Of a stretch of DNA of 64,000 bases, positions 15,701-64,000 are shown piece by piece. The number at the start of each line of letters is the position of its first letter. Position 1 is the stretch's first letter. The stretch comes from Psammoneis japonica. Taxonomy: Eukaryota. The notes below the pieces were generated by a model. It worked only from the letters and a program-made list of their open reading frames with translations. It was not told the origin of the DNA and did not search any database. The stretch covers positions 220,840-284,839 of the forward strand of contig QPGO01000016.1 in assembly GCA_008632985.1 (NCBI GenBank), read 5' to 3'. Made by a program: the position numbers and the translations under genes.

Positions 15701-16107
15701 GACACGCAACGCTCGAAAAATTTTTGTTTCATGTGACAACATAAACTTTGACACGACAAACATTCTCTTTACTCCGTAGTTGCACTGTCCCGCTCCCTGC
15801 TCATGGCCATGGCGTTGCGATGCCGGCAGCAGGCATGTGTGCTGGGTGCGCTGAGAGATTAAAATAAAAAAATGGACGATGCGTGGAGTAGCACGATCGT
15901 CTAAGCTTGATACGTGCACCAACTGCGCCTAAATAACTAACGCGAAACTTTCTTCGAACTTCAATGCAACGTAGAAACGGTCCACGACACGTAGATTTCT
16001 ACGTGTCTTGTACTTCCACGGCGCCTCCATTGCAGACAGAATCATCTCCTTCTCGTTCGTTCGAGTGCCTCACAATTTCTGAATTGCTCGTCAGTTCACA
16101 GTCCACC

Positions 16108-27868: not shown

Positions 27869-28139
27869 GGTGGTATTTTCGCACGATCGATGAAAAAAAG
27901 TGAGGTGGTGCGGTGAAGTGGGAGCGGTGGCTTCATATTTCCTTTATTAAAGGGATGTAGAGCTCGCATACTTTGTTATGTGTTGGTATGTGAGCCACTG
28001 CTTCTTACGAGCTTCAACCAAAGCTATCTTTTGAGTCACACAGGACCAAATCCGCACCATAACCCGGAGGGCACTAGCCATGTGGCTCGTCATTGCCCTG
28101 GGGCCTGGGGGGCCCAGCAGTGGTTCTGCTCTGTAGCTA

Positions 28140-29690: not shown

Positions 29691-29821
29691 GTGTTTTATG
29701 TCATTTTGCAGTGCAATTATTGGGCGATCCATTCAACAATTTTTCACATTTTCACACAGAAAGCCATTCCCAAATGTCTGCAGAATGGTGCAGTGCAGGC
29801 TGATTTTAATAAAAAAATTCC

Positions 29822-29930
29822 CATTCCGACTCCACAACAAGCAGAAATTGTACAGTACGTGGTGGAGCATAATGTGGTTCTGCGAGGTCATGCACCAGAG
29901 TCTTTTGCTAAGAGCAAAGAGGAAGGGTGA
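29822..29930 (+). pseudogene. 3' fragment of the duplicated SGNH-like gene
   Basis: PTPQQAEIVQYVVEHNVVLRGHAPE matches PTLQQAEYVQYVVERVVLRGHVPE at 26040-26115. Confidence 0.85.
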
Positions 29931-33352: not shown

Positions 33353-33600
33353 GATCTGCTTTTAAAGTCTTTGTTGCGTGTTTTTAGAAGTATGAGAGGC
33401 TAATACAAAGTAGACTCTAGAGTACGACAGCGCTGAAAAGGAAATCGAGGGTCAATGTCGTCAATCGATCAGAGGAGCGGGGTGCGAGAGGGGCGACAGG
33501 TTCCCTTCATCCCGACGGAGGGACAGACCCTCCAGGCTACTTGAAGTGAGCGACGTCATCTTTATCAACCAATTATTATTCTATTCGTCTCTACTTCAAC

Positions 33601-35972: not shown

Positions 35973-35978
35973 AATAGT

Positions 35979-37150
35979 TTTGTTTACGTTCTGGTTGTTA
36001 ATGTCATCTGGAGCTTCCTTCTTCCCAGGAATTGTGAGCGCTGAGACCTTTCTCCCGTTTCCTGGGTCCACATCTGAGTCCATGTTTGTTTGCAGGCGTG
36101 GCCAGAAAAATGTCATTTGGGTGAGTTGTTTGGTTGTTTGTCTTCAAGTCCACTTGTTTGAACACAAGATTGGGAATTTGTCATTCACTCTGTGCAGCAG
36201 TGGGGTGGCGTGTCACCTGCAATCCAGAAGCTGTGCCAGTCTGAGAATTTCCACATGTTGTTGACCCAGGTGTGAGCAGCTGGGTGATGGCAGCCCTTGT
36301 GCAGCTTTGTTCAAAAAGCTGTCACACTCTGTTGAGAGCACTGGGAGACCACCTTCTCAGTGTGAGACAACATTTTTTGTGACAAATGGTGACTCATGAG
36401 TGCCCAGCTTTGTTTGGTGAGTTGCTGGCCCACAAACTGCATCTCTGGTCATGCTTCACAGATCCCTGCACTTGGCATCATTGCTTGGCCAGCCATGGGG
36501 AGCTGTGCAAGAACAAGCAGCACACCGTGACTGGAACATTTGAGCACCACACAGCAATGTTGTCATGTCCAACAGCTGCCAGCTCAGCACCCACACTTCA
36601 CCATTTCCAAATGTTTGTCAATGGTGTGCCAGGATCACTTGACACCTTTTCATTGTTGCACTTGCTCCACAGTCCACAGACTGTGAGCTGTGGCATCTCC
36701 ACGTGGTGGCTGGAGGGGGCTGTGTCTGCAGTCAGAGCCCCCCCCCAACACACACACACACACAAGGGCTTGACTGTGTGCACAACAAACTGTCCAGGAG
36801 ACTGTGGGCTCCAGAAACTGCTTCACATCATTCTCCAAAGCCAGGAACAAAATTGCAGCCATGCCAAGGCATTGCCGAGCAAGAGTTTGAGACCAAAGCA
36901 AGTGCAGAAGGTGCGTTGTCAAGCAGTGCAGAGCAAAGTCATTGAAATGAGAACTTGCTTGGATGATCAATCTGCTTCCTCATCTCATGTGATGGTGTTC
37001 CCCTCATGCCACGAACGAAAAAGACGCCTGTCATTTTGTGCCTCTTGTGTTTCGCAAGTCTGCTGCACCGCTTCTCTCTCTCGCTGTTTTGCTCTTCCAA
37101 ATCCATGTTGTTTGACAACATCAAGGCAAATGACACAACTCAAATGCTTG
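35979..37150. mobile_element. Decayed repeat/TE block 5, inserted just after the stop of 4-TM copy 1
   Basis: Homology to copy 2 breaks after TTTAAAATAG (35978) and resumes around 37020-37120 (compare 38050-38127). CG/TA depleted. Confidence 0.65.
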
Positions 37151-37452
37151 TTCTCGATCAATCCATGAGCAAATGAAGGACAGGTGTGCGAAACAAGTTT
37201 CTACATGTGGTTCAGAAAATGTTGAAACGGCAGCAGCAAGCCAGGACGAACGAAACCGCCACCACAATTTCGGAAGAGGGGCAATACGAAAACGCGATTC
37301 GTGTCGTTGTGCGATCATTCCACGTTCGAATTCCGCGACTGATTGATATTCTCTATCTTGATCGATTGAAAACGGGGCAAGTTCTCATTTTTTCAACGAT
37401 CGATCGCTTCTTGCTACTTCTTCATTTGCTTATCTCAAATCCTAATCCAGTG

Positions 37453-41247: not shown

Positions 41248-41349
41248 ACACAATAAATGCGTGTCTACATGTGTGAATACAAACGTACATACGCTAAGCA
41301 CCCGGATATTTCGTAGAAGACCACATGCTGACGCCGTGCAGACTTCGCC

Positions 41350-44300
41350 TCACTCCTTTCTTTCGTCAATGTTGACAATTGAGGAAGAATCGGGGTGTGG
41401 CAGTCTCTCTTGTCCCCAGTGGAAGGACACTGCATGGCAATTCCTCCTCAAAGTTTTGATGATTTGAGTGATGATGTTTCTTGCATTTCGATGACCCACC
41501 CACACATTTGCCTGTTGTCATTGTGTGCTGCCCCGACAGAGTGTGAATGTGTGCCCAAGACCTCACCAGCAGAGGTGCATGTCACCATCAACTCCTTTGT
41601 TGCCATGAGTGGTCAACAGCAATGGTTGTTCTGGTGGTTGGGAATGAACAACAAAGTTTTTCAAGTGCTTGAGATGCAGGTGGAAGCTGCTGGGGAGGCT
41701 GGAGATTTTTGTGACTGGCGGGGCGCTCATCCGACCAAACCAACACAAAAGAAGCTCTTCAAGTGATGTTGCAACCATCAGCATTCCATCACCAATGCAA
41801 CACCTGCCCAAGCCAGTCATCAGGGGGCACTCAAGCTGGTCGACCATCTGGGAAAACAGTGTGACAGCTGCTGCAGGGAGAGGCTCCTCAAACGTTTGGG
41901 GTTTGAGCCACGAAATGCACTCTCTGGATTTTGTTGCACCTGCAATTCAGCAGGAAAACCAATTGTTGGTGCACCGGACATGGAGCACATGGTCCCACAC
42001 TAGATGGACTCATGGCGATTGCCTCTGGCTTCGCTCATTCCCTTTTCTGGACATGCGTCACATGGCAGCTTGTGTCTGTTTGGGAGTCTGACAGGTCATG
42101 TCGCCCTTTCAATGCCTCCTCTGCATTGTTTGGGACACATGGCATCAATGCGTTACATTCGAGCACCTCAACTTGTCTTGTGGAAGAGCCCATTGGCCAC
42201 CAACCACTTCGACCATTTTTCAACGACTTTGTTTTTTTTTCTACGTGGGAGCCAGTGTTGTTTCCACGCAGCATCCAACCACGGCTGCGAATCGACTTGT
42301 GGCACTGCACCCTTTGATCCATCAAGGCTTTGCTGCTTTTTTTGCAGTGATTCATTGACAAGCATCCATTCTGTTGACATTGGCTGTTCTTTGCTCCGTT
42401 GCCGGTGGTTGTTGACACTCGCAAGCCTCACGAAGACTTGCCAGCCTTCATCCTCCGAATCGGATGTCTTCTGTGTGACCTCCAGCGCAAGTTCTGCGTG
42501 TTGATGCTGTTTTGTTCCAGCGAACTGTGATGCTCTGCACCAGTGATGACCTCTCCGGGACAGCTGATGATGATCCTGCCTCTCAGCCTTCCTCTCTCCA
42601 TCTTGTGCAATGTGCCAGCAGCTGTGGATGTGGTTCATGCCGGCCAATGCTCTCTGCAGACAAGCAGTCGGGAGCTCTTTTCTGTCACCCCGTGGCGCTG
42701 GCAGATTCTTTCCAACTGGCTCTGGAGCTGACAAAACCAGAGAATTTTGAGCTGCCTGATTGTGTCAATGCTTGGAACAGTCTCTGTCTGTGCACTTTCC
42801 TGTTTGCGAAGTTTTCAAGTCAGGATCCCAGGACGGTTCTAGAGGAGCTCTTGCCCCCTTGCTCTTTTGAGTCACTTCCTCACCTTCACTCACATGTTGA
42901 CCGGTGGTGGCATTTTCTGCTTGAACAGCTTGCCTCTCCCACTTCTGATCCCTTTGTCATCGATGTGGACATTGACAAAGCAGCTTCCAAGGTGGTGCAT
43001 GAGTCCATTTTGCCTGTGCAGCCCCCTGAGCAATGCCCTGATGCGGGTTGCCCGTGCAGCCCTGCTGCATCTTGTCGATCTGGTTCTCTCCCACTGAGAT
43101 CAATCAGGGCCTTTGCTTTCCCTTTGCATCCTTTTGATTGGGTTGACGGTTGTGTTTGCGATGCTCCTGCTTCTGGGAATGATGCTGACGTGTCTCTTTG
43201 TTTTGGAACAGACGCCACGTTGGATCCTTCCAAACTCCCCGACGACGACCCATTTTCCCCTGGATTGAAGTCTTTGCAGCCGCACCCCATCACACACACT
43301 GCACCGCCACTGCATTCCTTTGGTTGGATTGATGGACTTGGCTTTGAAGGTTCTTCCATTGCCCCGGCTGGCTTTTCTCTCAGGTTTGGTGCTGCCGCGA
43401 CTTTGGATCCATCCAAGCTTCCCGACGATGACCCAAACGAGGATGCCCCGCACCCCATCACATGGATGACCAACCTCTTCTTGGATGTCTTGACCCTTTC
43501 TGATGATGACCCAAGCCATCTTTCCTTGCTGTTTTGTTTTTCTGCTCCCTGGTTTGATGACCCAACATTGGATTTGTCGAAGCTGTCCGATGATGACCCT
43601 TGCTCTTCTTCTTCCAACTGGGGGAGGGTTTCTTACACTGCATTGCCTTGCAGCTGATTGTCCGGTGGACTGCGGCACAGCATTTGTGGGTGTGTTTTTC
43701 TGATGACAGCATCATTTGCTCCATTTGTGCGGCTCTTTTTTTTTTTGTGATCAAACCAATGCTTTGATCAGTGGAGGGTGTTGGCGCACCGGACATGGAG
43801 CACATGGTCCCACACTGGACAGACTCATGGTGATTGCCTCTGGCTTCACTCGTTCCCTTTTCTGGACATGCATCACATCGTAGCTTGTGTCTGTTTGGGA
43901 GTCTAACGCCAATGCCTCACCAAAGCATTTGAACCTGTTGCCAGAGCCAGCAGGACACTTTGAAGCACCATGATTTCTTGGCTGGGAGCTGCCTCAATGG
44001 CTGCATTGCCCCAGCACTTGTTGCATGTTTTGACATCTTCAGATTGGGTCCAGGCTCAATGGAGAGTAAAATGCAACCTGGTGGATGGCCAATTCTGCAA
44101 TTGATGCTTGGACATTTTGGTGAAAATCTGCCAAGTGTGAAAATGCCATGCTTTGGAGCTCATTTGGCCTTGACGATGATGGATGTCTCTGCCTGAGTGT
44201 GCACCTCATTTCCAGCCACCACGCAAACATCCAAGTGTGACCCACTTCTGCAAGATGACAGCACCCCTTTGATTGGCTTCTTTCCACAAAAAGACCTGAA

Positions 44301-45400
44301 AGCATCAAAGACACAAAGTCGAGCCCCAAAACGACAGAGCCTCTCAGAGCAACAACCATTGTGATGTGGTGCTGCCAGCCCTCGAATGACTCGCGGTTCT
44401 GATGTGCCAAAAAATGAGCAAAAGATGCTCTTTTTGGCCAGTGGAACTGCTCTGATTCTTTTTGTTTATGAAACAAGAGGCCAGAAAGCTTCACCCTGAC
44501 AATGACAAAGTCAAAAACAAAGAGTTTTGTGAGCAAAACAAAAGAAAATGTTGCAAAGCTTGCCCTCAAGTGCTCACCTCACAACACATGTTCTGGCATC
44601 TGACTCATGATTGGAAGCATCAAAAGGCACACTCTCACCCTAATTTGATGTTGCTTCTCTTCAGAACAATTTTGAAAAATCACTTGGCCCCAATCCACTG
44701 AAGTGCAAAAGTTCAAGCAACTGGAACTCCCACCCAGATTGGCCTCGACTTGTGGTGAGGGGGATGTTGCATGGGTCCTCCAGGTTTGCAAGCCAGAAAA
44801 GGAAAGAAAATGTGGCAGTTTCACAATGTCTCGTCAAGAAAAAACTCACGTTTGCCACCAGAATCAACGCGCTTTCATCATGGCCATGCCCACAAAAAAC
44901 TCCTTCGGCTCATTGCGCAAAATTTTGGAGAGTGATGAGACATCATGAGATGAGGTGATTTACACAGCGTTGTGGTGCAAAATGTGTGTGTGACATCAAC
45001 ATGCCAGGCCTGCGGCTGTGGTGCACCTCTTTCATGGGGTGCCTTTCAACATGTGTGGCGCAATTGCTGTCGGCCTTTTTGTTCCTGGGATGAAATCCAG
45101 TGACAGCTCTGCAGCTGTGGCTTTGGCAAACTCAGTGCTCCAAAGTTTGGGTGGACTGGATCACTCAACAGGCCACTCTTGCTTGCAAAAACTCAGGGGG
45201 GGGCTTCGTCCAGTGTTTCTGAAGACTCCTCTCAAGACCTCCATTGGCCGAGTTTCAACTTGTGTCACCAAACTTTGACGCGGCGCCTCCCACAGTTGTT
45301 GTTTGCCTCTTCTTTCAATTTTCAATGCATTGTCGTTTTCGATTTTCAATGCAACCGAATGCAACAATGATTGTGATGTTTCAGTTTTTGTGTTCACTCG
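41350..45400. mobile_element. Decayed repeat/TE block 6 with internal direct repeats
   Basis: CG/TA depleted. 128-bp direct repeat at 41964-42091 / 43779-43906. Four TTGGATCC..CCGACGATGACCC-type units at 43220-43600. Confidence 0.7.
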
Positions 45401-46037
45401 TCACTCGGGGATGGCATCCGTGACATCACGCGCACGCGACGGCGCGCGCCGCCTGGACTACGTTGACCAGTTCGGAGGACCAGGACGGCCGGCATCAATG
45501 GTGGGGAACGTCAAGACTGTCAATTCGGATCCCTTTCATTTTTGCATTTCAACTTCCCACAACATTTTAGCTTTACTTACTGTCAATCGATCATGTTGAT
45601 GCTTTAGAGCCATTTGAACGCTCTAATTCCACAGAACGCCAAGAAATCCAAAGCCAAACGCGCCTAAAAGGCTTGCTTGGGATCCAGCACGGACCGGATC
45701 GTGGCATTGGAAAATCGTTGTTTGTTCTCTGGGGCTGTGAGCATTGATCATCCCACCATGGTGTGCAGATGATCAGGCATTTAAGGCCGGTAAAGATTCC
45801 CACAGACAATTTAAAAGAAAAGATAGACACTACCGTACAACTGAACCTCATAACACCAGTAGTAGTCTATTTCAGTTGAACAACACAGGCAATACAGGTA
45901 TCTGCTAAACTATTACTATGGCTGCTACACACCCATCATCCTTGGGTGGATACGCTTACCAATCTTCTTTCGTGAGGCTTCATGAATGTGGCACAGAAAG
46001 AATGTAGTAGGATTCATGAATCATTCATGAGTCATGT

Positions 46038-47357
46038 CTATAAAGGAAAGATCTGACCACGAATCTCACCAGCATGATTCTCTTCAGAGTGCACGTTGAC
46101 GTAGATCTTGCGCTGTTGTATGGCTTCGAAGAGAGACGAGGGGCTGTCTATGACAACATCGCACACTCCGGTTCCGTCTGTAGAGCTGAGTTCAATTATC
46201 TTTCCCTTACTGATTCGTCCGTTCCTGGTCACACCACCAGGTCCTCCTACAGGGGCCACGTTGAACAAGAACGCAACGACAGGCCCATTTGCTCCCGCGG
46301 GGCCGCAGTGCAAGTGAGCCTGCGTAATCTTGCGTCCCTTGAAGACATCCAAGGTGTACCAGATGTTGGTGAACCTGTTGTCAAAGTAGAGTTGGACCCA
46401 CCCGCTCGTCCTGGACTCCACGGCAGGAACTTCTTGTGCGCCGCTAGCTCTTGCCAGAAAATGGTAGCAATTTCCTGTTTGGCAGCACTCTCCAAAGCAA
46501 TCTTTGACGACAAGTTCGCCGCACTTGGCACCATTGCAGCCGCCTGTGACAGTGAGTAGACGGGAACGAGGGCTCGATTGGGAGTCAGAAAGCCTGTCGA
46601 CGTGAGAATGGAAGAGACGCCGTCCCTCTTCGTTCGATGAGCCCCCACACCGGCCCCCTCCTCCCAAGGTCACGCACACGAGACGAGTGCCAGAACCAGT
46701 AGTCTCGAAGCAAACTCGGCCGGAGTCATTCTGTGCACCATCTGTGGAGAGTCCCACCATTGAGGATGACTGTTCTTCCTGACCATCTAGCGAGGAAAGA
46801 AGAAGCGAAACAGAAGTTCCGCGGCTCAGGTCTGTCCACATTTCAGCTACCGTCTCGATGGGAATGCAGCTGTACGACTCGCCAGTAGCCTCATCGATGG
46901 TAGAGTTGAATAGGACAGTAATGCCGACGCCCCTGGTAGCCACAACAATATCACCATCTGTAGTTACAAGCGTTCCATCAGCCTTGACCGTTGTGTCTTT
47001 GCTGAGAGATATGGCGAGGTACGTTGTTCCGATGTTTGCGACAGCCAGAACCACAACTAGAGACGCGAGAACTATCGCCCAGTTGCGTCTCTTCTTACTT
47101 TGCTCTTGCGTTCGTAGCAAATCCTGCGCTAAGCGTCGGACTTCGCGATCGTCGAGGTGACCATAATTGTTCTTGTCGCGGTTGCGCATTTCTTGCTCAA
47201 CTTCATCGAGGTATCCCTTGTTTCCCTTGTCGTATCTGGAGGAGACAGCGGAGAGATTCTGTTGTCCTCTTGTCTTTGTCGGCGTCGACTCGCTCACTCC
47301 GGCGTCGATGGGTGATCCGGTTTCCTCGTCCTCATGTCCAGGAGACTCCATTGTCAT
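46038..47357 (-). CDS. Membrane protein with EF-hand-like N-terminus and C-terminal CHRD domain
   Basis: YDKGNKGYLD..RDKNNYGHLD, then TM WAIVLASLVVVLAVANIG. CHRD motifs SGAQEVP, ITQAHLHCGPAGANGPVV and YVNVHSEENHAGEIRGQI. Confidence 0.85.
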   Translation of the reverse strand: MTMESPGHEDEETGSPIDAGVSESTPTKTRGQQNLSAVSSRYDKGNKGYLDEVEQEMRNRDKNNYGHLDDREVRRLAQDLLRTQEQSKKRRNWAIVLASLVVVLAVANIGTTYLAISLSKDTTVKADGTLVTTDGDIVVATRGVGITVLFNSTIDEATGESYSCIPIETVAEMWTDLSRGTSVSLLLSSLDGQEEQSSSMVGLSTDGAQNDSGRVCFETTGSGTRLVCVTLGGGGRCGGSSNEEGRRLFHSHVDRLSDSQSSPRSRLLTVTGGCNGAKCGELVVKDCFGECCQTGNCYHFLARASGAQEVPAVESRTSGWVQLYFDNRFTNIWYTLDVFKGRKITQAHLHCGPAGANGPVVAFLFNVAPVGGPGGVTRNGRISKGKIIELSSTDGTGVCDVVIDSPSSLFEAIQQRKIYVNVHSEENHAGEIRGQIFPL

Positions 47358-48159
47358 TATTTGCAGCCGTAGCTACTGGTGGCCATTTTACTTCTTCTTT
47401 TGGAGTGCAATGAGGGGTCACAAAGTCACAAAGAGGGCGGTGAAAGCATTACTTTTGGATTTTGTTTGACGTGAACCTACTATGTACAGTTCTATGTTCT
47501 ATTTTATTTTACAATGGTTGAAGACGTCAATGACTTATGACTGTGACCGCCATCAACGACTGAAACGATTGAACAACCAACGCGAACCCAATCAAAAATT
47601 TCGAGGTTCAAATCAAGAATGGAGCTCACTTTATTCTCGTTCTTACACTGACAAGAACTTCTTGTTCCTGTTAAGTCTTTGGCTCCAGCTCATCCATGTC
47701 ACCTTTGGCACATGTTCCTGTCACTTCTTGTTTCTTCACAATGATTGGCCTCCTTGTTGCTTGGCCTGTTCCAGCGAATGAATGCAGACACAGCATCGTG
47801 GCTGGTGTCACAATGCTCTTGCCCTTGTCTTTACGATGCACTCATTTCTGTGTAGCAGCTCCCACAAGTTTGCAAGCCAATCAGGCTTTCTTGTCCTGTG
47901 CTCCCCACACGTTCCATGCACTGACCAAGACAGACCACTCCGCCAGGATTTGCTCGATCCCCGCGAACCGACACAGCCACATCGACACAACTGTGTCTGT
48001 TCATCCACTCGAAACATCCTCTCATAGAGAGCCAAAACACAAACCCAATTTGCTGCCAGCCAATCTGGCTTGGGAGGTCACAAGGTGTGAGTGCGAGTTG
48101 CAAGCCCTGGACCTTGGCTGCAAAGGACCATCATCGCCGAAAGACAAATGAACATGGCT

Positions 48160-48678
48160 GCCAATGCTTTTCACCTGTCACAAACTTTGTCAACGGATCC
48201 ACCAAATTTGTCTCTGCATCTTCCTTTCCATCTCTCATCATTCTGGCTGCAACTGCCTCTCTCACTGTGCGACAATTGACTGCGTTGTGTGCTTCTTGTG
48301 CAGCGCAGATTCCGGAGTGCTGACATTCTTCACCACAACATGGTTGTCACAAAACACGCTCGCCGGTCCATCCAATGGTGCTCCAAACATGCACAACTTG
48401 TGATGCAAAGCAACAATCATGTCCTCACAGGTGCGCATTGCAACCAGTTCACTGCCAAATGCAGAAGACTCAACCGCATTCTGCCGTTTGCTGAACCACA
48501 TGATCGGAGAATTGTTCACAAAGACAACAACGCCAGAGTGTGACCTGTGCATGACAATGTTTCCGGCATGATTCACATCAATGAAAGCATGCACAGTTGC
48601 TGGGTTTCCACACAGCTTGGGCATCTCAGGCGGCAACTCTTCTTTGATGTTGCCATGGAATTTGACCCAACATGTCAA
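48160..48678 (-). mobile_element. Ty1/copia (CoDi-like) RNase H relic
   Basis: FIDVNHAGN..RSHSG..PIMWFSKRQNAVESSAFGSELVAM..VFCDN..KKH, then after a frameshift NAVNCRTVREAVAA..GKEDAETNLVDPLTK. Confidence 0.92.
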
Positions 48679-49569
48679 AAAAGGTGATTGTTAGACGGCG
48701 GGTGACGTTTGGGGAAAGAGGCACCCGGTGCAAACAAACAAACCTTTCTTGATTTCACACAAACAAAACAATGATTTGCACATCAATTTTTGCCGGCTCT
48801 CATCATCTGTGCACATCATTTGCTCTTTTGCATGACATTGCAGCCTCACTGAGCATTCAAAGATGTTTGCAAAACGCCCCTGCTTGTTGCTTGGCATGGC
48901 TTTGTTGATGAGAAATGACACCAAGAGGTTGCAAGAGTGGCGTGATGGGTGTTGTCATCCAAAAAAAATCTTGTGTTTGTCTGTGTGTGTGCAACTTGGC
49001 ACTTCTTCTTGTTCATGGAAGACCAACAGTGTGCAAAAAGTCACAGTCATTAGAACAGACTTTTTGCTGACTTTGACAGGTCATGCCAGTCAAAGTCACT
49101 TGCAGCGCTGCAGCTGGTCAAGAGCAATGATGAACAATCAGAAGTCAAAGTCAGGTACGCAGCAGTCAGTCACCTCTCATGGTGTTCAGTCAGCAAACTG
49201 ACTGACACTCAGCCAGCAAACTGACTGACACACATCACTTGTCAAGGCCATCTGAAACTTGTTTCTGCTCTGAACAAGAAGGAGTGTGAGTGAGCACAAT
49301 TCATTGTGCAAAACTTCCACAAGCTGTGTGGCAATTGCACAAAAATTGACTCAGGTCTTGTTTGTTGTCAAAATCAAGCTCAAAACAACCACGCCAATTT
49401 TGCTCTTTGTTTGTCGCACTGATCCAGCACATCCATTGTTGTCATTTGTCTTTTCAAACACAGTCATGTGGATGGTTGCACACCTTCAATTTCTTTGTTT
49501 TCTTGTCAAAATCTCATCCACAGTTGATGCACTTCTTGTTTCAAAGCCAGCTCCACCATTCTGTGGCAC

Positions 49570-52500
49570 TCTCAACGACAGCTCTTGAAAAGTTTCATCT
49601 CTGGGGTCTCCCAAAGAAGCCTCTCAGTGCCTTTTGAATGCAGTTGTTGGGTTGGTTGGTGCACCCCCCATGGTGTCCTTTCACTGTGGGCCAAGGCATT
49701 GCTTTGCTGCAAAATTGCACTCATGAAGTGCTTCCACTGCGGACTTTGGATTTCAAGCCTCGCCCTTGGCTCTGTGTGAAGTGACATGAGGTCACAGCTG
49801 AGCCAGGAGGGTGGCCTTTCAACTCTCAACCACAGCTCTTAAAGTTTCAACTGGGGTCCACTGTGGACACCCAGCACCTTTGGATGGCAGTGGTTTGGTT
49901 TGTTTGTGCATTCACTCATGGTGTCGTTCCACTGCAGAGCTGGGGCTTCAAGTCCCCCCCCCCCTTGGCTTTGTGTGAAGTGACATGTGGGGCCACAGCT
50001 GAGCCAGAGTGGCCTTGCAACTCTTCATCACAGCTCTTGAAGTGTTGTCTGGGGTCCAGAAAAGACACTTGGTGCCTTGTGACTGCAGTTCTTGGGTTGG
50101 CAGGTGCACTCATGGTGTCCCTTCACTGAAGAACTGGGGCTCAAGCCCCCCCTCTGGCTTTGTGCAAAGTGACATGAGGCCACAGCTGAGCCAGGGTGGC
50201 CTTGCAACTCTTTGCCACAGCTCTTGGAGAGTGTTGCCTGGGGCCCAGAAAAGGCACTTGATGCCTTGTGACTGCCGTTGTTGGGTTGGCAGGTGCATTC
50301 ATGGCACCCCTTCACTGCAGAAAAGGGGTTCAAGTCTCACCCTTGGCTTTGTGCAAAGCGACACGGGGCCACAGATGAGCCAGGGTGGCCTTGCAACTCT
50401 CAACCCCAGCTCTTAAAGTGTTGCCTGGGGTCCACCAAAGACACTCAACACCTTGTGCCTGCAGCTGTTGGGTTGGCAGGTGCACTCATGGTGTCCCTTC
50501 ACTGCAGAACTGGGGCTCAAGTCTCGCCCTTGGCTTTGTGCAAAGTGACATGGGACCACAGCTGAGCCAGGGTGGCCTTGCAACTCTCAACCCCAGCTCT
50601 CAAAGTGTCACCTGAGGGGGTCCACCACACGTGCTCAACACCTTGTGACTGTGGTTGTTGGGTTGGCAGGTGCACTCGTGGTGTCCCTTCACCACAGAGC
50701 TGTGCGGGGGGTTCAAATCTCTCACCCTTGGCTTTGTGCAAAGTGACATGGGGCCACAGCTGAGCCAGGGCAGCCTTGCAAATCTCAACCATGGCTCTTG
50801 GAGTGTTGCCTGGGGTCCACCACACATGCTCAACACCTTGTGACTGTGGTTGCTGGGTTGGCAGGTGCACCCGTGGTGTCCCTTCACCGCAGAACTGGTG
50901 CTCAAGTCTCGCCCTTGGCTTTGTGCAAAGTGACATGCTGGGGCCACATCTGAGCCAGGGTGGCCTTGCAACTCTTAACCCCAGCTCTCAAAGTGTTGCC
51001 TCTGGGGTCCACCAAAGACACTCAACACCTTGTGACTGCAGCTGTTGGACTGGCAAGTGCGTTCATGGCATCCCTTCACTGCAGAAAAGGGGTTCAAGTC
51101 TCACCCTTGGCTTTGTTCAAAGTGACATGGGGCCACAGCTGAGCCAGGGTGGCCTTGCAACTCTCAACCCCAGCTCTTGGGGTGTTGACTGGCATCCTCC
51201 AAAGACACTCAACACCTTGTGACTGCAGCTGTTGGGCTGACAAGTGCATTCATGGCATCCCTTCACTGCAGAAAAGGGGTTCAAGTCTCACCCTCAGCTT
51301 TGTTCAAAGTGACATGGGGCCACAGCTGAGCCAGGGTGGCCTTGCAACTCTTAACCCCAGCTCTTAAAGTGTTGCCTGGGGTCCACCAAAGACACTCAAC
51401 ACCTTGTGACTGCAGCTGTTGGGCTGGCAAGTGCATTCATGGCATCCCTTCACTGCAGAAAAGGGGTTCAAGTCTCACCCTTGGCTTTGTTCAAAGTCGC
51501 ACGGGGCCACAGCTGAGCCAGGGTGGCCTTGCAAACCTCAACCATGTCTCTTGAAGTGTCACCTGGGGCCCACCACATGTGCTCAGCACCTTGTGGTGAC
51601 TGTGGTTGTTGGGTTGGCAGGTGCACTCATGGTGTCCCTTCACCACAGAACTGTGCGGGGGTTTCAAATCTCTCACCCTTGGCTTTGTGCAAAGTGACAT
51701 GGGGCCACAGCTGAGCCAGGGCAGCCTTGCAAATCTCAACCATGGCTCTTGGAGTGTCGCCTGGGGTCCACCACACATGCTCAACACCATGTGACTGTGG
51801 TTTGGTGGGTTGACAGGTGCACTCACAGTGTCCCTTCACCACAGAACTGGTGCTCAAGTCTCGCCCTTGGCTTTGTGCAAAGTGACATGCTGGGGCCACA
51901 TCTGAGCCAGGGTGGCCTTGCAACTCTTAACCCCAGCTCTCAAAGTGTTGCCTCTGGGGTCCACCAGAGACTTTCAACACCTCGTGACTGCAGCTGTTGG
52001 ACTGGCAAGTGCGTTCATGGCATCCCTTCACTGCAGAAAAGGGGTTCAAGTCTCACCCTTGGCTTTGTGCAAAGTGACATGGGGCCACAGCTCAGCCAGG
52101 GTGGCCTTGAAACTCTCAGCCATGTCTCTCAAAGTGTCACCTGGGGCCCACCACATGTGCTCAACACCTTGTGAAGGTGGTTGTTGGGTTGGCAGGTGCA
52201 CTCATGGTGTCCCTTCACTGCAGAACCTGGGCTCAAGTCTCGCCCTTGGCTTGACATGAGGAGAGACAGGTGGCATTGCAGCACTTGACCATGGCTCTTA
52301 AAATGTTCACTGGGGTCCACCAAAGACACTCAACACCTTGTGACTGCAGTTGTTGGGTTGTCAGTCAGGCACATTCATGGCGTCCCTTTGCTGAAAAATT
52401 TGGGCTAAAGTCTCAGCACCCTTGTGTTTGTGTGAAGTGTCGCGGGGTCTCAGTTGCACCACGGCGGCTTTTCAGCTCCCAACCGCGGCTCTGAAAGTGT

Positions 52501-52890
52501 CACCTGGGGTTCACCAAAGACAGTCAATGCCTTTTGACAGCAGTGGTTGGGAGGGCAGGTGAGACTTGAACCCCACTTCATTGCAAAACTGGGGTTGAAG
52601 TCTCGCCCTTGGCTTTGTGCAAAGTGACATGGGGCCACAGCTGAGGCAGCCAGGGTGGTCTTGCAACTCTCAACCATGGCTCTTAAAGTGTTGCCTGGGG
52701 TCCACCAAAGATGCTCAACACCTTGTGACTGCAGTTTTTGGGTTGGCAGGTGCACATTCATGGCATCTCATTGCTGCAGAGCTGGGGTTCAAGTTTCACC
52801 CTCAGCCAGGGTGGCCTTGAAACTGTTGCCCATGGCTCTTAAAGTGCTGCCTGGGGTCCACCAAAGATGCTCAATGCCTTGTGACTTTCG
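49570..52890 (+). repeat. Satellite array, about 17 monomers of 187-198 bp
   Basis: CCAGGG landmark at 50191, 50380, 50567, 50765, 50955, 51144, 51331, 51518, 51716, 51907 and 52096. Diverged monomers at both edges. Confidence 0.95.
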
Positions 52891-53775
52891 CAAAGTTGCA
52901 AAGCAGGGTGATGAAAGCATTTTGTTTGATGTGAACCTGGGCAATTCTGTGTGACATTTTAACGTTTAAAGATGTCAATTGTTTTGTCCAACACTGAATG
53001 TGGAATGCAAAACACATGATGAGATGGTGTTTTCCAGATTTGAACTGACCTTTTCAGAGCATTTGCAACTCGGGCAGTGAGAAAATGAGTGGATCACAAA
53101 TTGCTTTGTTTTCTAAGAGGGGAGAGAGTTGAAGATGACCAGACTCCAACTCAACTTGGGCTGGATGATCAGGGCCAAATTGAGATGTTGTGCTTGCAGC
53201 AACTGGGTGTCAGGTTTCAGTGCCAGATGTCCAAAAGCTCAGAGAACAGTGGCGGCTGTTTCTGAGCTGGGTGCTCTTGAGCATCAGTCGCAGCCATTTT
53301 GAAGCAACACCACCAGCATGAACGCACTTTGTTCTTGTTGCCTGTTTGCTGACTGGCTCAAATGGAGTGGACACAGAAACATTGTGTTGCATCTTCGGCT
53401 TTGTTGTTGAGACTGATCTTGAAAAGACGCTGCCACTCAAACTCAAGCACCAGCTTTGGGCACAAAAAATTCCATCCACCGCCTTCTTTGGTGGTCCCTG
53501 CCCCTGCATCTGGAGTGTCCTTGCCCACCCAAAAGATGACGGGGTTCTTTGGTGTGTGGTTTTGCGTGCTGAATGAAATGTGTGAGGAGATGGGCACACT
53601 CAGCTTCATGATGTGAGAGAAAAACAGGCAAGAGAAAAACAAACACTCTGTCTCTCACCAAGGCTGTGTTGAGGGGACTTGCCAACAAAGGAAAATGACA
53701 ACTCTTTTGCCACTGGCTTGCTCCTTCGGCTGTGGTCACTTGGCCAAAGCACTCCATTTTTCTCAATGATGCCTT

Positions 53776-54222
53776 GTGCAACATGCAGCCACCAATGAGA
53801 GTCAACGCATCACGGCGACGTGTTACAGCCTTTAAATGTCACAAAGGGCGTGACAAAAACAACCTTTTGTCTGCATGCATGCTTCATTGTGAATTCACAG
53901 CGGAGTGGTACATCGTGACCACTGGGCAGGAGGCCAGGGGTTCGAAACCCGAGTGGGAGTTGTCTGCAGCAACGTTGATCACTGTCGAACGCGTAAAACT
54001 CTGTGCAGTTCTGTATGTTCCTTCGTACGTACCCACACTGTTCCGCCAAAACCGTGCAGTGTCAGCACACGTCAGTAAAGAGCCGCATGGACGCGTGACA
54101 CATGGGGAGGAGTGCAACACACAGCCACTGATGAGAGTTAATGTATCACGGCGACGTGTTACAGCCTTTAAATGTCACAAAGGGCGTGACAAAAATGACC
54201 TTTTGTCTGCATGCACACTTCA
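53776..54222 (+). repeat. 111-bp direct repeats (53776-53886, 54112-54222) enclosing a tRNA-like sequence
   Basis: Gap-free alignment at offset 336. Confidence 0.92.
53891..53960 (+). mobile_element. tRNA-derived Pol III promoter / SINE-head-like element
   Basis: A-box-like CAGCGGAGTGG (53898) and B-box GGTTCGAAACC (53939) in a GGG-TTCGAAA-CCC T-arm. Acceptor and anticodon stems are poor. Confidence 0.6.
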
Positions 54223-55396
54223 CTTGCCCCCCCCCCCCGCCCCTTTGCCAAGGGTTTTCAGAAATGGCTGTGGGCTGGCAGATGAGCTGCTGCTTGCTGT
54301 GTGCAGCACCAACACACTCATCTCATGCTTGTCTGGTGGGCAACACTTGCTTGTTTCTTGCTTTCTGTGTCTCCCTCTGCACTGCCCCCCCCCCCCCCCC
54401 CCGCAAGCAGAGGAGTGCAGTTGCAGCTGGCTTGCTGACTGGCGCACACTTGTTGGTCTTGCTGATCTCTGATGAGAAATCACTGCATGGGTTGCAAGCA
54501 CATTTCTGTCACCACTGCCACCTTTGCCATGTGTCAACTGCGGCTGTGCAGAAACTGAAAAGCAAGTGCCAGACCCACAACTCAGCAGGAGCTGTGAGCG
54601 CAAGTTTGCCACATCGCCAACAATTGCCAGTGCATCCTTTGCTGCAACATGCCATCTGTCTGTCCTGCAAAGAACTGCCTTGCACCCCAGCACTCCAACA
54701 GCGGCACTTGTTCTCTCCAAAAAGAACAAACAACAAACCAATCACTCACAGGGTTTTTGCAGGTCTTTGATGCACCACAGAAAGTTGGTGCATCATGAGG
54801 CAGCCACAAAGCAGATCTGTGTGACACAGAAACAGCAGCACAGGCAAGCTCAGATGTGGCCAGTTCAGCGGCTGTGTCTGAGTGGCTTTGGAGGAGCATG
54901 TTCTTCAATTGAAAGTCGCTGAAGTTGTCACAAGTTTGCATTTGTGCTGCACTTGACAAAAGGCAAATGGCGCCTGCAGACTGGACAAAATGTGCAGGAG
55001 CTTTGACGGCATCATTTTTGTTGTTGCAAGGCAACAGAAGCTTTGGCAAAGATGTGGATGGTGGTTGTCATTGTCATGTTGCTGGGGCACCTGCTTGCTT
55101 CTCATGATGTTTTGTTGTGCTCTGGGCTGATGGAATCTCAAAGAGCATTTCAAGCTGGTGACATCTGTCATTGTTTGGCAGAAAAGACTCCAAAGCATTT
55201 GGGCATTGGGCCTCACATTTTTCACTGGTTGACCAGGGCAACCTTTCAGACCCGTTGTTCCCACCACCACCAAAGTGACCCCAAAGTTGACAAAGTCACC
55301 ACAGAGAGTGCAGAGCGGCACTTTGAGCATGGGCTGAGCTGGGAGGGGTGCTTTTCCACTCAGCTCACTGCACTCCAGGCAGTGGGGGGGGTGCCA

Positions 55397-55681
55397 TGTG
55401 TGTGAGCAGGGGAAAAGCCAGACAAGAAAAAAGCAGCACAAAAAGATGTTGTTTGTTGATGCCAAACAAATGACAAAATGAGCTCACACAGTTGAAATTT
55501 GCAGAGGAAGCACATCGCTGCTTGCACAACATGGGGGCATGTGTGTGAGCAGGGGCAAAGCCAGACAAGAAAAAAAGCAACACAAAAAGACATGTGTTGT
55601 TTGTTGACGTGCCAAACAAACAACAAAAAATGAGCTCACAGTTGAAATTTGTGGAGGAAGCACACCACTGCTTGTGCAACA
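55397..55681 (+). repeat. Imperfect tandem repeat, 2 x ~140 bp
   Basis: GTGTGTGAGCAGGGG.AAAGCCAGACAAGAAAAAA...TGAGCTCACA..GTTGAAATTTG..GAGGAAGCACA occurs twice. Confidence 0.88.
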
Positions 55682-57296
55682 CTGCTGCTCACCTCAGGTC
55701 AGGGCAGCCACCTCACTTTGCTCCTTTTGTTGGTTGTGGGGAAACTGCCCAGCAGTGTGCACGCATGAGGAGCTCACATGCAACGTCACCCACCAGCGGC
55801 GCAGGGGTGGAGCAGGGACAGATGTGGGAAGCAAGGGTGGAACTGAGTCATGCATGCAGGAAAAGGGGTGGGTTTCAGGTTGGGGTTGGAGAGTTGGGAT
55901 TGCAGTTTGGCAGAGCATTGGGTCAGTTGGTCAGCGAGCGATTTGGCAGTCACAAAGCTCAGGCTTTGAAGGCCCCGCTGCGATGGAGCCGAAGTGTGGT
56001 GGGCCAGGGGGCAGAATCATCATGCAGTGGACATGTTCTGCCAAGGGGCAGCAGCAGCAGCAGCAGCAGGGAGAATGGCAGACAGCGGCAGTTGGGTGCA
56101 GTCATGTGCTGCATGGGTGGCTGGATGTTGAAAGGAGGATTGAGCAGCCCAGAGAGGGGCTGGTGGAGCAGATGCGTTCCAGCCCCAGGTGGGACTCCGT
56201 GTGACATTGGGCCCGTGGAATTCTGCGTGCGAGCTCCGCAGCACAAGAATTTAATTGATGGATGCATTTGTCTTCAACATCAAATAAACGGCCAAGTTTG
56301 TGGTGCAATTTTGCCCCTTGCCACTCGACGTTTTTGCAAATGCACCTGCCCTGCGCGATTTTTAAGACATTGTAGAATCGCGCTGCAGCAACAAATGTCA
56401 AAAGTTTTTGGACGGATCGCTCAACAAGCACACCATAAAATGACACAAGATGTCGAAAAAATCACGTAGAAATCTACGTGCGCGACATACGACGTGATTC
56501 AAAAAACTGTCGATGTCACAGTTCAGCAGTGCGAGGTCCCACCTGGACCTGGAGCACGTCAGCAGGGGGATGGGGTGTTCTTGGTTGGCTTCGAAAAGAA
56601 GAAGAAGGTGGTGAGCGAAGCAGCCAGGGGCTCCCAGGTGGTCGACGGTGAAGGGAATGAGGTAAATGCCGGCGTCGTTGAGAGCAGATGTAAGGGTGGC
56701 TTCTCTGTGCGATCGACCACAGGCTCGAGATGTTCGTCAGAGTGGCTCTCTGCCTGCCGCCTGGGAGTGCCGCATCTCATTTTCGGAACATCACCGAACT
56801 TCGTTCATGTGCATACAATACACATACAATGTGGCGGGTCATTTTCACGTACTCGTATGTTTGAAATGTACAACATACATGCCTGAAAATATATAATGGA
56901 GCCCAAACCATTGATTTGGAAACGTGTTACGTCATCACTATCGAAAATATGTACTTTACTGGGGTACGTGGCACTGACCTCAACATTCTATGCAAATGCA
57001 TGTCGTACTTTTTGATCGTTGAATACTTCGTATGTACAATCATACATGAGAATGATACCGCAGTGATACAAGTGCGCACGCGAGAATTTGATTGGTTCGC
57101 ATTTGACACCTTGGTAGGTTTTGTACTGTGAGCTACGCAGGCTCATGAAAGTTCTGCGATCTTTTGCTAATGCGCCTGTCGTGCGTAGATTTTGTACCAA
57201 GCTCAACGGATTCAATCTCTCATCACAAACATCAAAATCAGCAGGCCATGGCCAAAGATTGAAACCGACCATTGTATTCCTGAATCGCCATTCACC

Positions 57297-60987: not shown

Positions 60988-61905
60988 CTATGAATCACCG
61001 CCACCAGGCAAAATGTCCTTTGATGCATCATAGGTGGGAGCAGCATCGTCCACTTTGATTTCCGAAGCGTCCATTTGAAGCATTGGCATTGGCTTTTTCC
61101 TTCCATCTTTATCGTCCGCTCGGACCAATACAAAGAGACTGCCGTCTCCGCCACGGGAAATTCGCAGCTCATTATCCAAATATGTGACATCGATACTCGG
61201 AATAACGCCTTGTTTTTCGGCTGGTCCTTTGGGTATAGCGGTCTTTTTAATCTTTCCAAACGTCGGAAGGACCAACAGTCTTCTCAGGGTAAACACCACC
61301 TTTTGAAACTTGACATTGGCCCTACTTCCGTCATTGGTCACTCCAGCACGATTTACTTCTCCAATCGGTGCTAGCCAAAAGTTGGCCAAGACTCGTGTAT
61401 GACCACTCGCAATTCGTAACTTGTGCTTGATGAGGGCTTGGTTTTCAAAACGGCCATCCGTCACGTTAATGGGTTGAAACACTGGACCAAGAGCAAACCC
61501 GAGCGGCAGCTTGACAATGCGTGTGATTTCCGAAGCGTCCGAGTACACCAATTGCCAATCCCCATTCAAGGTATCAACCGCAATTGTCGAATTCGATAAC
61601 GGAGGGAGCGGTGCGGCAGCCTCGAGTGCCATGACGGCCTTTTCAATTTCAGAAATTGTATCGACGTCAGTAGTAATGTTGGTCGCCGGCGCTCCAAAGG
61701 GACGCTTGGGAATCAAGTCCAAAAGATTCTTCTTTAATACGTCTGTGGACGGACTGCTAGTAGACTCATCAGCATCAGAAGACGGCGTGGAGGAGATTAT
61801 CAAGGCAGAACATGCGGGACGGAGAAACGGAACACTTGGAACGAACGCGGTCAACAAGGGAAGGACCAAGAATGCGATAGCGATACTCATACATTTTCTC
61901 ATCAT
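60988..61905 (-). CDS. Plastid lipid-associated protein / fibrillin (PAP_fibrillin)
   Basis: Signal + LTAFVP presequence, LNGDWQLVYS, GPVFQPI and IDVTYLDNELRISRGGDGSLFVL. Confidence 0.9.
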   Translation of the reverse strand: MMRKCMSIAIAFLVLPLLTAFVPSVPFLRPACSALIISSTPSSDADESTSSPSTDVLKKNLLDLIPKRPFGAPATNITTDVDTISEIEKAVMALEAAAPLPPLSNSTIAVDTLNGDWQLVYSDASEITRIVKLPLGFALGPVFQPINVTDGRFENQALIKHKLRIASGHTRVLANFWLAPIGEVNRAGVTNDGSRANVKFQKVVFTLRRLLVLPTFGKIKKTAIPKGPAEKQGVIPSIDVTYLDNELRISRGGDGSLFVLVRADDKDGRKKPMPMLQMDASEIKVDDAAPTYDASKDILPGGGDS

Positions 61906-64000
61906 TCTAAGGGCTCAACAGATTGTTTGGTAACAAGAATCCTTGATAAAATGCAAACCTTGATGAGCGTTATGGTTGAGAGATCCTCCAAAAGCGCCGT
62001 GAAAAATGTTTGAGTTGAAGTCGAAGATTCTCGGTATCTTTGCATCATATGATATAGCCCCAAACACGAATATTTTAATATTTTCAGGTGGAGGGAAAAT
62101 TTTGCCCAAACGAGAAAACAAAGGATCATGAATCATGAACAAAAAATATCTAGGGCCCTATTATAGAGAGAGTGAAGTCATGACGCTTCCACCGTCAAGC
62201 CGTGAGAGGAATCCCAGTGGGTGGACGAAAGGAGTGTTCTCTCGATAAGATATTCACACGGTACATCAAACTTGTACATTTTTGATTTTGATCGAGTTGC
62301 AAATATTTTGTACAAGTACATACCGGTACAGAGCATGGAACCAGTCAAGCACCTTGGTTGTGCTCGCCGCTCCTCTTCAATAGGCAGTGGAATATGGTAT
62401 GAGAATAAATGTAGAGCCGTCACAGCGATGAATCCTCGTGTAACTATAGAGCGGCTTGTCAAGCTTGAAAGCCTACTACCGGTACGACAGGCGGCGCCGT
62501 CCTACCGGTATCAGCCCCGATCCTTCACCGGGCTATTCGGTCAGTATACATGCTTGAGTAGTGCAGAGGGCATTTAGATTGGTCCCTCTCTCATCTGGAC
62601 AAAGCATCTGGCACATAGGAGACAACTCGCGAATCCGTACAGTAGATAGCTGGCGCGACATTATTTCCTCTCGAGTCTTTCTACCTGGGACAATGCAGCT
62701 GCGAGAGGCAGTACCGGTAGTACAAACGAGGACTCCAATTTTACCACGTATACCCATTGCACACGAGGGCCCAAAAACAACAAGAAAGCGTTGAATCGTT
62801 CCGACCTTGTCGGCATACATGGCATGCACAGAAGAAATGCACTCCCGAACAATGTCCGTTGAAAGATGAACTGCCGGTCGCATCCCGAGCCATCATCAGC
62901 AATAGCCCCACCGTGACCCCAAAGTCGTGCAACGATACCTGATCACCACTCGAAAACTGCGACAGGAGTACGTCACTCATGGTTGGAGGGATGTAGTTCT
63001 TGCCAGATCGACCAAAGATATAGCGATTAATCTCTTTTGGAAACTCAAAGGCACTATCTTTAGACTCGACTCGGCCAGTTCCAATCTCCAAATCATGGTT
63101 GAGTCACGCAGAACAATAAGAGTTTCGTGCATTTTAACTCCATCGACCTTCAAAGAGACGGGTCTCACAGCAACATTTCCGATATCTTCGTAGGAAAAGG
63201 TTTTCTGGCGAGAGCAAGGATATGCCCCTCTCCTGCTTGGACTGCTTGAACATGCAGCATCCCATACAAAAGAATCGGAAGGGAAGCATGAACAGATATG
63301 CGAGACATGGTGGCGGTGTCTCAACTCTCAACGACAGCAATCCCATTCGTGTCCGGGACAAGCTTTGGAGAACCCGATGCAGAATTCGGGACAAGGTCCG
63401 ATGATGGAATCGGCTGGTTCTGAGTTGGGATGTTGGAAGCGGTGTCGGGGATACTTTTCGTCAATGAATTCAGTTGGCGCAGGTAGAAACGAGAGTCCGA
63501 GAAAGAAAATTACGCACTGTGAGCTCTTTTTGTTTCTGTACGTTTCAACAACACGGTTTTTGGTTCCACGACTGCGTGACGCTATTACTGCACATCTCGA
63601 TTGCAGAATTTCTGTTGCCATTCTTACCCGGACTTGGAGTTGCTTTCCATTCCTGAGTCTCGCTCCCCAGCAGGAGTTTGATTCGTTGAAGTTACCGTCA
63701 TGATGCTCTTCAAAAAGATATAGGCTGATGTTTAACAGCACTATATGGGCAGAATTACGCTTGATTAGATGCAGAATAATCCGCGTCACCTCAGCGCTCT
63801 CAAGCTCATGCCTCTATCATCGGATGGCGTTGCTTCAAAAAACAGCTTTTGAAAAATTTGCCACCCTTTCGCAATTTTTAAAATTTTTGCCCCGCTATGT
63901 ACATTCAATCATATTTAAAACTATTCATACACTACATTATTGTAATGATTCAGAGGGGGGCTCACTCACCCCCCTTCTCCTGCTATTCTCACGTGAAAAA

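Follow-up and report, generated by a model that had tools for sequence, protein, structure and literature searches.

Which letters were lost, and by what kind of process, where long blocks of a diatom contig have come to hold hardly any TA dinucleotide? We addressed this question for a 64-kb stretch of the genome of Psammoneis japonica (contig QPGO01000016.1, positions 220,840 to 284,839 of the forward strand; hereafter the window, in whose coordinates all positions are given), in which a relic of the RNase H part of a Ty1/copia retrotransposon lies on the minus strand within such a block. The copia relic is useful because the conservation of the protein provides an ancestral state that non-coding DNA cannot provide. 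As tyrosine is encoded by TAY and four of the six arginine codons are CGN, the loss of TA and CG by transition turns both residues into histidine (CAY) and cysteine (TGY), and the direction of change can be read from the relic because conserved Tyr and Arg residues have turned into His and Cys. From the comparison with its relatives, we consider it likely that this dead copia RNase H fragment in a repeat block was rewritten, once unselected, by two context-specific transition processes.

The relic is covered by a stretch in which TA is entirely absent, against a mononucleotide expectation of 43.9 occurrences; four ordinary genes of the window contain 33-43 TA each in 927-1335 bases. The stretch and the parts of the relic are the following:

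48026-48691, no strand: TA-free stretch over the relic, 0 TA in 666 bases, delimited by a TA at 48025 and the next at 48692
48262-48690, minus strand: frame A of the copia RNase H relic, 142 codons without a stop and without Tyr (open reading frame list and translation)
48283-48304, minus strand: frameshift zone, where the homology switches from frame A to frame B (2 extra bases or 1 missing base)
48131-48346, minus strand: frame B, the C-terminal end of the polyprotein (HNAVNCRTVRE...NLVDPLTK), 71 codons ending in a TGA stop at 48131-48133

A phmmer search with the relic against 1.84 billion representative proteins gave 5183 matches with E ≤ 1e-3, of which 62 had E ≤ 1e-30. The best 150 of the 5183 matches were 38-61% identical to the relic, apart from P0001 (23%), an unrelated multi-copy protein that was dropped from the tallies. 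Among the 150 matches listed were 17 full-length relatives (1281-1468 amino acids), and 16 of these passed the Pfam cut-off for RVT_2 (the remaining one, P0096, scores 29.4 against 31.6 bits). All 17 matched the window by tblastn at 48134-48723 only, and did so via their residues ~1070-1420, so that the homologous span represents the last ~190 codons, the RNase H part, of a Ty1/copia polyprotein. The interval 48160-48678, to which an earlier note on this DNA had assigned the relic, lies inside this span. The frame switch near 48283-48304 was seen with 14 of the 17 full-length relatives: tblastn segments end at 48274-48298 and restart at 48289-48304, the second segments (frame B) being located at 48134-48304. 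A hidden Markov model (HMM) of the 17 whole polyproteins recognised frame A as HMM positions 1154-1281 (E 1.6e-60) and frame B as HMM positions 1278-1326 (E 5.5e-9), and over all six-frame pieces of the window it recognised nothing beyond these two frames.

By sequence homology the relic thus belongs to the Ty1/copia RNase H domain, the C-terminal domain that follows RVT_2. Within the window the whole-polyprotein model returned positions 1154-1326 only, and the gag, protease, integrase, reverse transcriptase and flanking long terminal repeats (LTRs) of a whole element were not found; neither was a second copy of the relic or an LTR partner recovered in the window by self-BLAST or tblastn. Judged by homology, the feature is a solo, dead, 5'-truncated and frameshifted Ty1/copia fragment rather than an element, because the polyprotein model finds only the two end pieces. 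Pfam and NCBIfam named no family for the relic, and sequence searches of the PDB yielded nothing meaningful. An AlphaFold2 model of frame A (mean pLDDT, the predicted local distance difference test score, 74.3) was compared with the PDB by Foldseek, and the top rows (Piwi, EndoV, RNase H1 LC11, E. coli RNase HI and HIV reverse transcriptase; E 0.012-0.1) were mostly RNase H-like folds, none of which reached E ≤ 0.001. One of the phmmer matches of the relic is the metagenome protein P0076; two of its relatives are named 'Ty1/Copia family ribonuclease HI' by NCBI, and others are annotated as reverse transcriptase of the diatom Fragilaria crotonensis.

We then inspected the codons of the relic at columns where the relatives are conserved. 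For the column tally, 149 matches were aligned to a profile of the 17 full-length proteins and the low-Tyr proteins P0097, P0107, P0136 and P0076 were set aside. The earlier note had given a consensus of approximately FYG, LRYKLRMFG and INYH and had read FHG, LHHKLCMFG and VNCR in the relic. The former is borne out by the relatives, which carry mostly Tyr, Arg and His at those columns, and the latter motifs are present as described, the translation of frame A including WVKFHGNIKEE and ALHHKLCMFG. The codons concerned are, with the residue found in the relatives:

48655-48657, minus strand: CAT, the His of FHG; Tyr in 105/112 relatives, the change being inferred as TAT>CAT
48403-48405, minus strand: CAT, the first His of LHH; Arg in 114/144 relatives
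48400-48402, minus strand: CAC, the second His of LHH; Tyr in 115/144 relatives
48391-48393, minus strand: TGC, the Cys of KLC; Arg in 106/144 relatives
48272-48274, minus strand: TGT, the Cys of VNC; Tyr in 82/106 relatives
48269-48271, minus strand: CGC, the Arg of NCR; His in 95/105 relatives

At the four Tyr-consensus columns the relic has His, Phe, His and Cys (3/4 His/Cys), the Phe being carried by 34 of 144 relatives. At the eight Arg-consensus columns it has His, AGG, CGG, CGC, His, Cys, AGA and His (4/8 His/Cys). The proposed changes from TAY to CAY/TGY for Tyr and from CGY to CAY/TGY for Arg are supported, as a single transition separates the codons of the relic from TAY or CGY. The loss of Arg to His and Cys does not extend to VNCR, where the Arg represents a change in the reverse direction, His>Arg (CAC>CGC). 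Such a concentration of His and Cys is rare among the relatives: of the 137 that cover at least three of the four Tyr columns, 119 have His or Cys at none of them, 13 at one, 3 at two, 1 at three and 1 at four, as compared to three in the relic, and the corresponding numbers for a further 119 proteins from a separate retrieval are 113, 4, 0, 0 and 2. Active relatives with His or Cys at these positions, which the earlier note had named as the observation that would overturn its reading, are not what the comparison shows: the large majority of all relatives carry Tyr or Arg there, and the full-length ones, with the one exception given above, pass the RVT_2 cut-off.

Five copia RNase H pieces from other assemblies (P0076, P0271, P0136, P0107 and P0097) contain 0-2.3% Tyr and carry His or Cys at Tyr columns. 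The same TA loss seems to occur in environmental relatives, because these low-Tyr copia proteins come from other assemblies and P0076 and P0271 from metagenome contigs.

The substitution spectrum of the relic was derived from aligned columns with at least 50% consensus at which the relic departs from the consensus and its codon can be reached from a consensus codon by just one possible single-base change. This procedure yielded 30 single-base changes, 25 transitions and 5 transversions. The transitions comprise 5 TA>CA, 4 TA>TG, 5 CG>TG and 6 CG>CA changes, and 5 in other contexts (AA 2, CA 2, GG 1). The 11 CG>TG/CA changes include three of Arg to His and one of Arg to Cys. Thirteen changes are A>G or T>C, and 9 of them occur at TpA (5 T>C and 4 A>G on the sense strand). 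Judging from this nearly even split, both DNA strands were struck about equally. TA or CG covers 19-22% of the bases in ordinary window genes, and the binomial probability of finding at least 20 of 25 transitions in these contexts (p=0.2) is 2e-10. In 14 of the 20 context-matched changes (Tyr>His/Cys, Val>Ala, Leu>Pro, Arg>His/Cys, Pro>Leu, Ala>Val, Thr>Met) the dinucleotide lies wholly within one codon, and for that reason the ancestral context follows from the consensus residue. That TA and CG are the ancestral states at the relic sites, as had been proposed, is supported by the relatives' Tyr and Arg, since the relic codons are one transition away from the relatives' TAY and CGY, and by the 20 of 25 transitions in TA or CG context. 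The same proposal held that the coding capacity of the transposable element (TE) was destroyed by missense; the Tyr and Arg missense changes and the absence of an in-frame stop agree with it, and the truncation to ~190 codons and the frameshift have also done damage. The lack of any in-frame stop in 142 + 71 codons is in agreement with the inability of TA loss to create stops.

The TA-free stretch belongs to a larger set of blocks. When TA-poor segments are defined as containing at most 2 TA per 400 bp, nine such segments are found, which together make up 22,261 bp or 34.8% of the window, and the longest TA-free run in the window is 2083 bp. The dinucleotide ratio rho in these segments versus the rest is 0.05 vs 0.60 for TA, 0.28 vs 0.98 for CG, 1.80 vs 1.19 for CA, 1.72 vs 1.14 for TG and 0.74 vs 0.93 for AT, while GC content stays at 47-52%. 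The blocks and the repeats that adjoin the relic are:

47833-56362, no strand: the relic's TA-poor, CG-poor, CA/TG-rich block, composed of segments 47833-52959, 52961-53908 and 54145-56362 with 15, 4 and 4 TA
1497-5150, 8341-9668, 14047-15741, 28076-29717, 35976-37346 and 41296-45573, no strand: six further TA-poor, CA/TG-rich blocks, in which CG depletion varies widely
49752-52802, no strand: 187-bp satellite, 16 copies (TRF), also read as a 385-bp double unit, which adjoins the relic in the same block
53776-54222, no strand: TA-bearing high-copy repeat with 12 TA sites and 111-nt direct repeats at 53776-53886 and 54112-54222 that are 90% alike

On its left side the transition into the relic's block takes up about 150-350 bp, near 47.68-48.03 kb, and the block is interrupted by a TA-bearing island at about 53.8-54.2 kb; the region 53707-54440 is the only such island inside it. 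Copia homology was not detected in the six further blocks.

The repeats and the reads provide a view of the same sites in several copies. In an alignment of 15 satellite units, 23 variable dinucleotide columns were found, mainly involving TA, CG, CA and TG, and 18 of the 23 have both CA and TG. When present at one column, CA and TG are each one step away from TA or CG and two steps away from each other. For the reads we used sequencing run X1, from which contigs were built on exact 31-letter words. X1 contigs at word depth 64-70 are identical to the window over 46000-48391 and 48528-50121, which shows that the sequence is real. The summed X1 depth over the relic (234-270) indicates that a few related relic copies (≥ 88% alike) exist elsewhere in the genome. 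In the block with the relic, one X1 contig lacks 2 letters at 48286, within the frameshift zone (depth 91.5 of 155.9), and on this account a related copy elsewhere in the genome may read through that region in one frame. X1 contigs also join the 187-bp satellite units in other orders, from which it follows that array variants or other satellite arrays exist. Word depth in X1 amounts to 30,000-154,000 over 53707-54440 and 55909-56642 (30,000-80,000 for the repeat at 53776-54222) as compared to 62-64 for single-copy DNA, which makes these two regions a very high-copy repeat. Other X1 contigs read CA or TG at 9 of the 12 TA sites of the repeat (53825, 53994, 54015, 54026, 54030, 54076, 54139, 54144 and 54161). 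The repeat at 53.7-54.4 kb includes a run that resembles a tRNA T-arm, though ARAGORN found 0 tRNA genes in 53000-57000. Among the 40 variants listed between the window and other X1 contigs, to which 32 further ones are to be added, 33 are transitions: 18 of TA vs CA/TG, 8 of CG vs CA/TG and 7 in other contexts. The listed TA variants run in both directions (11 with TA in the window and CA or TG in the others, 7 with CA or TG in the window and TA in the others), as do those of CG (6 with CA or TG in the window and CG in the others, 2 with CG in the window and TG in the others).

Several observations weigh against the proposed rewriting of the relic. Six of the 20 context-matched changes span a codon boundary, and their neighbouring base had to be taken from the CA/TG-rich relic itself, which is partly circular. 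Five transitions occurred in other contexts and one of these, the His>Arg change CAC>CGC, creates a CpG. The nearest relatives are 44-61% identical and the ancestor is represented by a clade consensus, so that some of the differences will be ordinary lineage divergence. One Tyr column is occupied by Phe, which would have required a transversion from an ancestral Tyr. Of the 23 satellite columns, 11 retain CG as the residual ancestral state and only 1 retains TA, and most of the alternation visible there may stem from CpG. Finally, X1 may be the run behind the assembly and in that case is not independent of it.

Three other explanations of the substitutions were weighed against this background. 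Editing of the element's RNA, that is, adenosine-to-inosine (A-to-I) conversion next to U by an ADAR- or ADAT-like enzyme before reverse transcription and integration, is suggested by the nature of the affected sequence, a retroelement, and by the U that typically precedes an A edited by ADAR, as described by Mettrop et al. (bioRxiv 10.64898/2026.01.13.699255). It is nevertheless highly improbable, because both strands were struck, sense T>C (5) being as common as A>G (4), and because DNA other than retroelements is affected: the TA-free state extends far past the relic into the 187-bp satellite and unclassified DNA, and repeat copies differ at TA sites after integration. That His, Cys and TA-free coding are instead native to this copia lineage, without any directional loss, could be argued from the 4 of 144 relatives that have His in place of the LRY Tyr (including P0003, one of the closest matches) and from the distance to the closest relatives, which are at most 61% identical. 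We regard this as extremely improbable: Tyr predominates in the relatives already at the first column, no relative with normal Tyr content has His or Cys at three or more of the four columns, P0076 and P0271 carry His and Cys, respectively, at one column, the non-coding neighbours have the same signature, and the copy is truncated and frameshifted and so not under selection. Systematic long-read miscalls at modified bases could likewise have turned TA and CG into CA and TG, since strand-specific miscalls at palindromic modified sites would yield a mixture of the two, and no library type is recorded for X1. Such an artefact is extremely improbable, because the exact-word X1 contigs, which extend up to 315 kb, reproduce the sequence in a manner that fits accurate reads, and because the same Tyr>His/Cys pattern is present in proteins of separate metagenome assemblies; the relic moreover shows ordinary decay (transversions, frameshift, truncation). 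GC-biased gene conversion was also considered and rejected, as it is not dinucleotide-specific and CG>CA/TG runs the other way.

The earlier note had spoken of a single process. Both TA and CG have indeed been lost, yet the sequence comparisons point to two processes that are probably separable. Within the window TA loss is nearly complete in every block, and CG loss differs from block to block, with 4 CG in each of the 1-kb bins at 2001-4000, 30-31 in those at 42001-44000 and 26 in the bin of the relic. Among the relatives in the databases, each signature is found without the other. P0076 and P0271, which are 85% identical over 218 amino acids, have His or Cys at 4/4 Tyr columns and His, Cys, Gln or Trp at 0 Arg columns; at the Tyr column of FYxD one has His and the other Cys, as would fit independent TA>CA and TA>TG changes in one TAY codon. 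Conversely, in P0092, P0054 and P0129 4-6 Arg columns have changed to His, Cys, Gln or Trp and no Tyr column has changed to His or Cys. A search of metagenome contigs with P0076 returned one copia locus, L001 (53% identity), with a rho of 0.38 for CG and 0.83 for TA; the DNA of P0076 or P0271 was not among the results. One RIP-like machine (after the repeat-induced point mutation of fungi), in which a single deaminase, or a pathway triggered by repeats, acts in repeats on both the A of TpA and the C of CpG, would account for the block boundaries that both depletions share in the window. Such a machine would have precedents in amphioxus ADAT2, which edits A and C in DNA, and in Trypanosoma ADAT2, which deaminates DNA C (both as reported in 10.64898/2026.01.13.699255), and diatoms carry DNMT4 enzymes that are related to fungal RID (PMC9998398). 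We consider it unlikely, as P0076 and P0271 lost Tyr without Arg change, the other three proteins and L001 show CpG decay with Tyr or TA kept, CG varies among bins in which TA is nearly gone, and passive deamination of 5-methylcytosine (5mC) is enough for the CG part. Because the signatures occur apart in the relatives, we read the CG part as ordinary methylated-CpG decay and the TA part as a separate process.

A mechanism along these lines would have started when selection on the fragment ceased. From then on, every TpA would have been converted to CpA or TpG by A:T>G:C changes on either strand, and about half or more of the CpG to TpG or CpA. The CpG part would be deamination of 5mC, given that diatom TEs are CpG-methylated; in Phaeodactylum the LTR elements are methylated, reportedly in CpG context (PMC2806351; PMC9998398). 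The TpA part would be the same kind of targeted TpA hypermutation as in the chlorarachniophyte Bigelowiella natans. In mutation-accumulation lines of that species, two integrated viral regions are reported to have acquired 231 mutations, 230 of them A>G or T>C and every one of these on TpA, at a rate of about 6e-7 per site per generation, and the genome is reported to hold 124 clusters of TpA-poor, CpA+TpG-rich 1-kb windows and low-TpA coding sequences enriched in reverse transcriptase and DDE domains (10.64898/2026.01.13.699255). Its authors proposed adenine deamination by an ADAT2-like enzyme. By analogy, the TpA part in the diatom may be due to an ADAT2-like enzyme that is directed at silenced repeats and deaminates adenine in their DNA, or alternatively arise from a mutagenic modification of thymine or adenine at TpA. 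We infer a process at the DNA level that is confined to repeat or silenced domains; whether it serves as a defence or is a by-product of chromatin or base modification seems to us about evenly balanced. A wider proposal can only be put forward tentatively, with the odds rather against it: that diatoms have a TpA-directed DNA-editing system that acts on silenced repeats, retrotransposons and satellites, runs to saturation and is separate from CpG decay, and that would be the same ancient system as in the rhizarian Bigelowiella, a genome defence shared across stramenopiles, alveolates and Rhizaria (SAR). If true, TpA-directed editing would be a mirror image of fungal RIP in which whole kilobase blocks lose every TA, with the removal of TAA and TAG stops, and hence long false open reading frames, and a GC-neutral erosion of TEs by Tyr>His/Cys missense as side effects.

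Ordinary genes are located between and beside the TA-poor blocks, and the blocks themselves contain long frames without homology. These remaining features of the window are:

46038-47372, minus strand: CHRD gene, an intronless open reading frame of 444 codons with a C-terminal CHRD domain (E 1.7e-19) and ordinary TA and CG
6898-8073, plus strand: SpoIIIAA-like ATPase gene between blocks, an ordinary gene
20734-21900, minus strand: N-myristoyltransferase (NMT) gene between blocks, best named matches in diatoms (64-67% identity)
32213-33361, minus strand: PRP38 gene between blocks, an ordinary gene
60988-61914, minus strand: PAP-fibrillin gene between blocks, an ordinary gene
28791-29930, 36383-37168, 42479-43657, 53699-54472 and 55549-56469: long stop-free frames of 257-392 codons in TA-poor blocks

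The genes for CHRD, NMT, PRP38 and PAP-fibrillin are of ordinary composition and lie between TA-poor blocks; the edge of the relic's block is sharp, as the ordinary CHRD gene lies about 300-450 bp away from it. The diatom matches of NMT make a diatom the most likely host, which is a plastid-bearing eukaryote. Pfam gave no matches for the five long stop-free frames, and these are probably false open reading frames because TA-free DNA can have only TGA stops.

The implications extend to annotation and dating. In TA-free DNA, with TGA as its only stop, long false open reading frames arise and TE relics escape homology searches, and substitution clocks, as used to date TE insertions, fail in TA-poor blocks. 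A mutation process that acts on TpA only was first measured in 2026, in one chlorarachniophyte, and a saturated trace of its signature in a diatom would show that it is not a single-species curiosity. The same signature here would further show that the process acts on ordinary transposons and satellites besides viral insertions and can shape a third of a genomic region. It is also relevant to efforts to find an adenine-editing DNA defence in eukaryotes. Full-text literature searches, and the text of a 2025 preprint on diatom TEs, gave no report of TA loss in diatoms, in which the TpA-loss process is apparently unreported.

How, then, does the locus compare with known systems? By homology the relic is a diatom CoDi-like copia. 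What it has in common with the diatom Ty1/copia elements (CoDi groups; Maumus et al. 2009, PMC2806351) is an RNase H end that matches the C-terminal part of RVT_2-bearing polyproteins, together with the Fragilaria crotonensis names among the matches of the related P0076. It differs from them in that only the last ~190 codons are present, without reverse transcriptase, integrase or an LTR pair; because the reverse transcriptase is missing from the locus, it is not placed in a CoDi group.

With methylated-CpG decay it shares the 11 CG>TG/CA changes, the rho of 0.28 for CG and the change of Arg to His, Cys, Gln or Trp that is also seen in database relatives. The CG>TG/CA changes with a CpG deficit that 5mC-driven decay predicts are thus found in the sequence, and such decay leaves the TA loss unexplained.

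Fungal RIP turns CpA into TpA, by which TpA rises, GC falls and TAA and TAG stops are made. The likeness is that repeats are acted upon, that transitions with a dinucleotide preference result and that TE genes are ruined. The signature is the opposite and RIP was rejected on that ground: instead of an excess of TpA with a deficit of CpA and TpG, rho is 0.05 for TA, 1.80 for CA and 1.72 for TG, so that TpA vanishes here, while GC stays at 47-52% and no stops arise.

The B. natans process, as the preprint describes it, comes closest in its TpA>TpG/CpA changes on both strands, in its long-term trace of TpA-poor, CpA+TpG-rich clusters (here the nine segments) and in its targeting of foreign or selfish DNA. 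In the relic A:T>G:C changes at TpA are found on both strands, the direction being taken from the consensus and not from observed mutation, and the TpA-poor, CpA/TpG-rich clusters are present as well. The settings differ, a chlorarachniophyte with insertions of nucleocytoplasmic large DNA viruses (NCLDVs) and virophages versus a diatom (stramenopile) with a copia relic, a satellite and high-copy repeats, and so does the extent of the loss, with a rho of 0.45 in the B. natans NCLDV region versus near saturation here (0.05, TA-free runs up to 2083 bp). The B. natans spectrum is described as almost purely A:T>G:C without CpG loss, whereas here CpG is also lost (11 CG>TG/CA changes, rho 0.28); the spectrum is not nearly free of G:C>A:T, and the match, which covers half of the signature, is weakened to that extent. 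We read the G:C>A:T changes as a second, superimposed process, and regard the copia relic as a sound internal control for a real and striking TpA-loss process that is best grouped with the Bigelowiella case.

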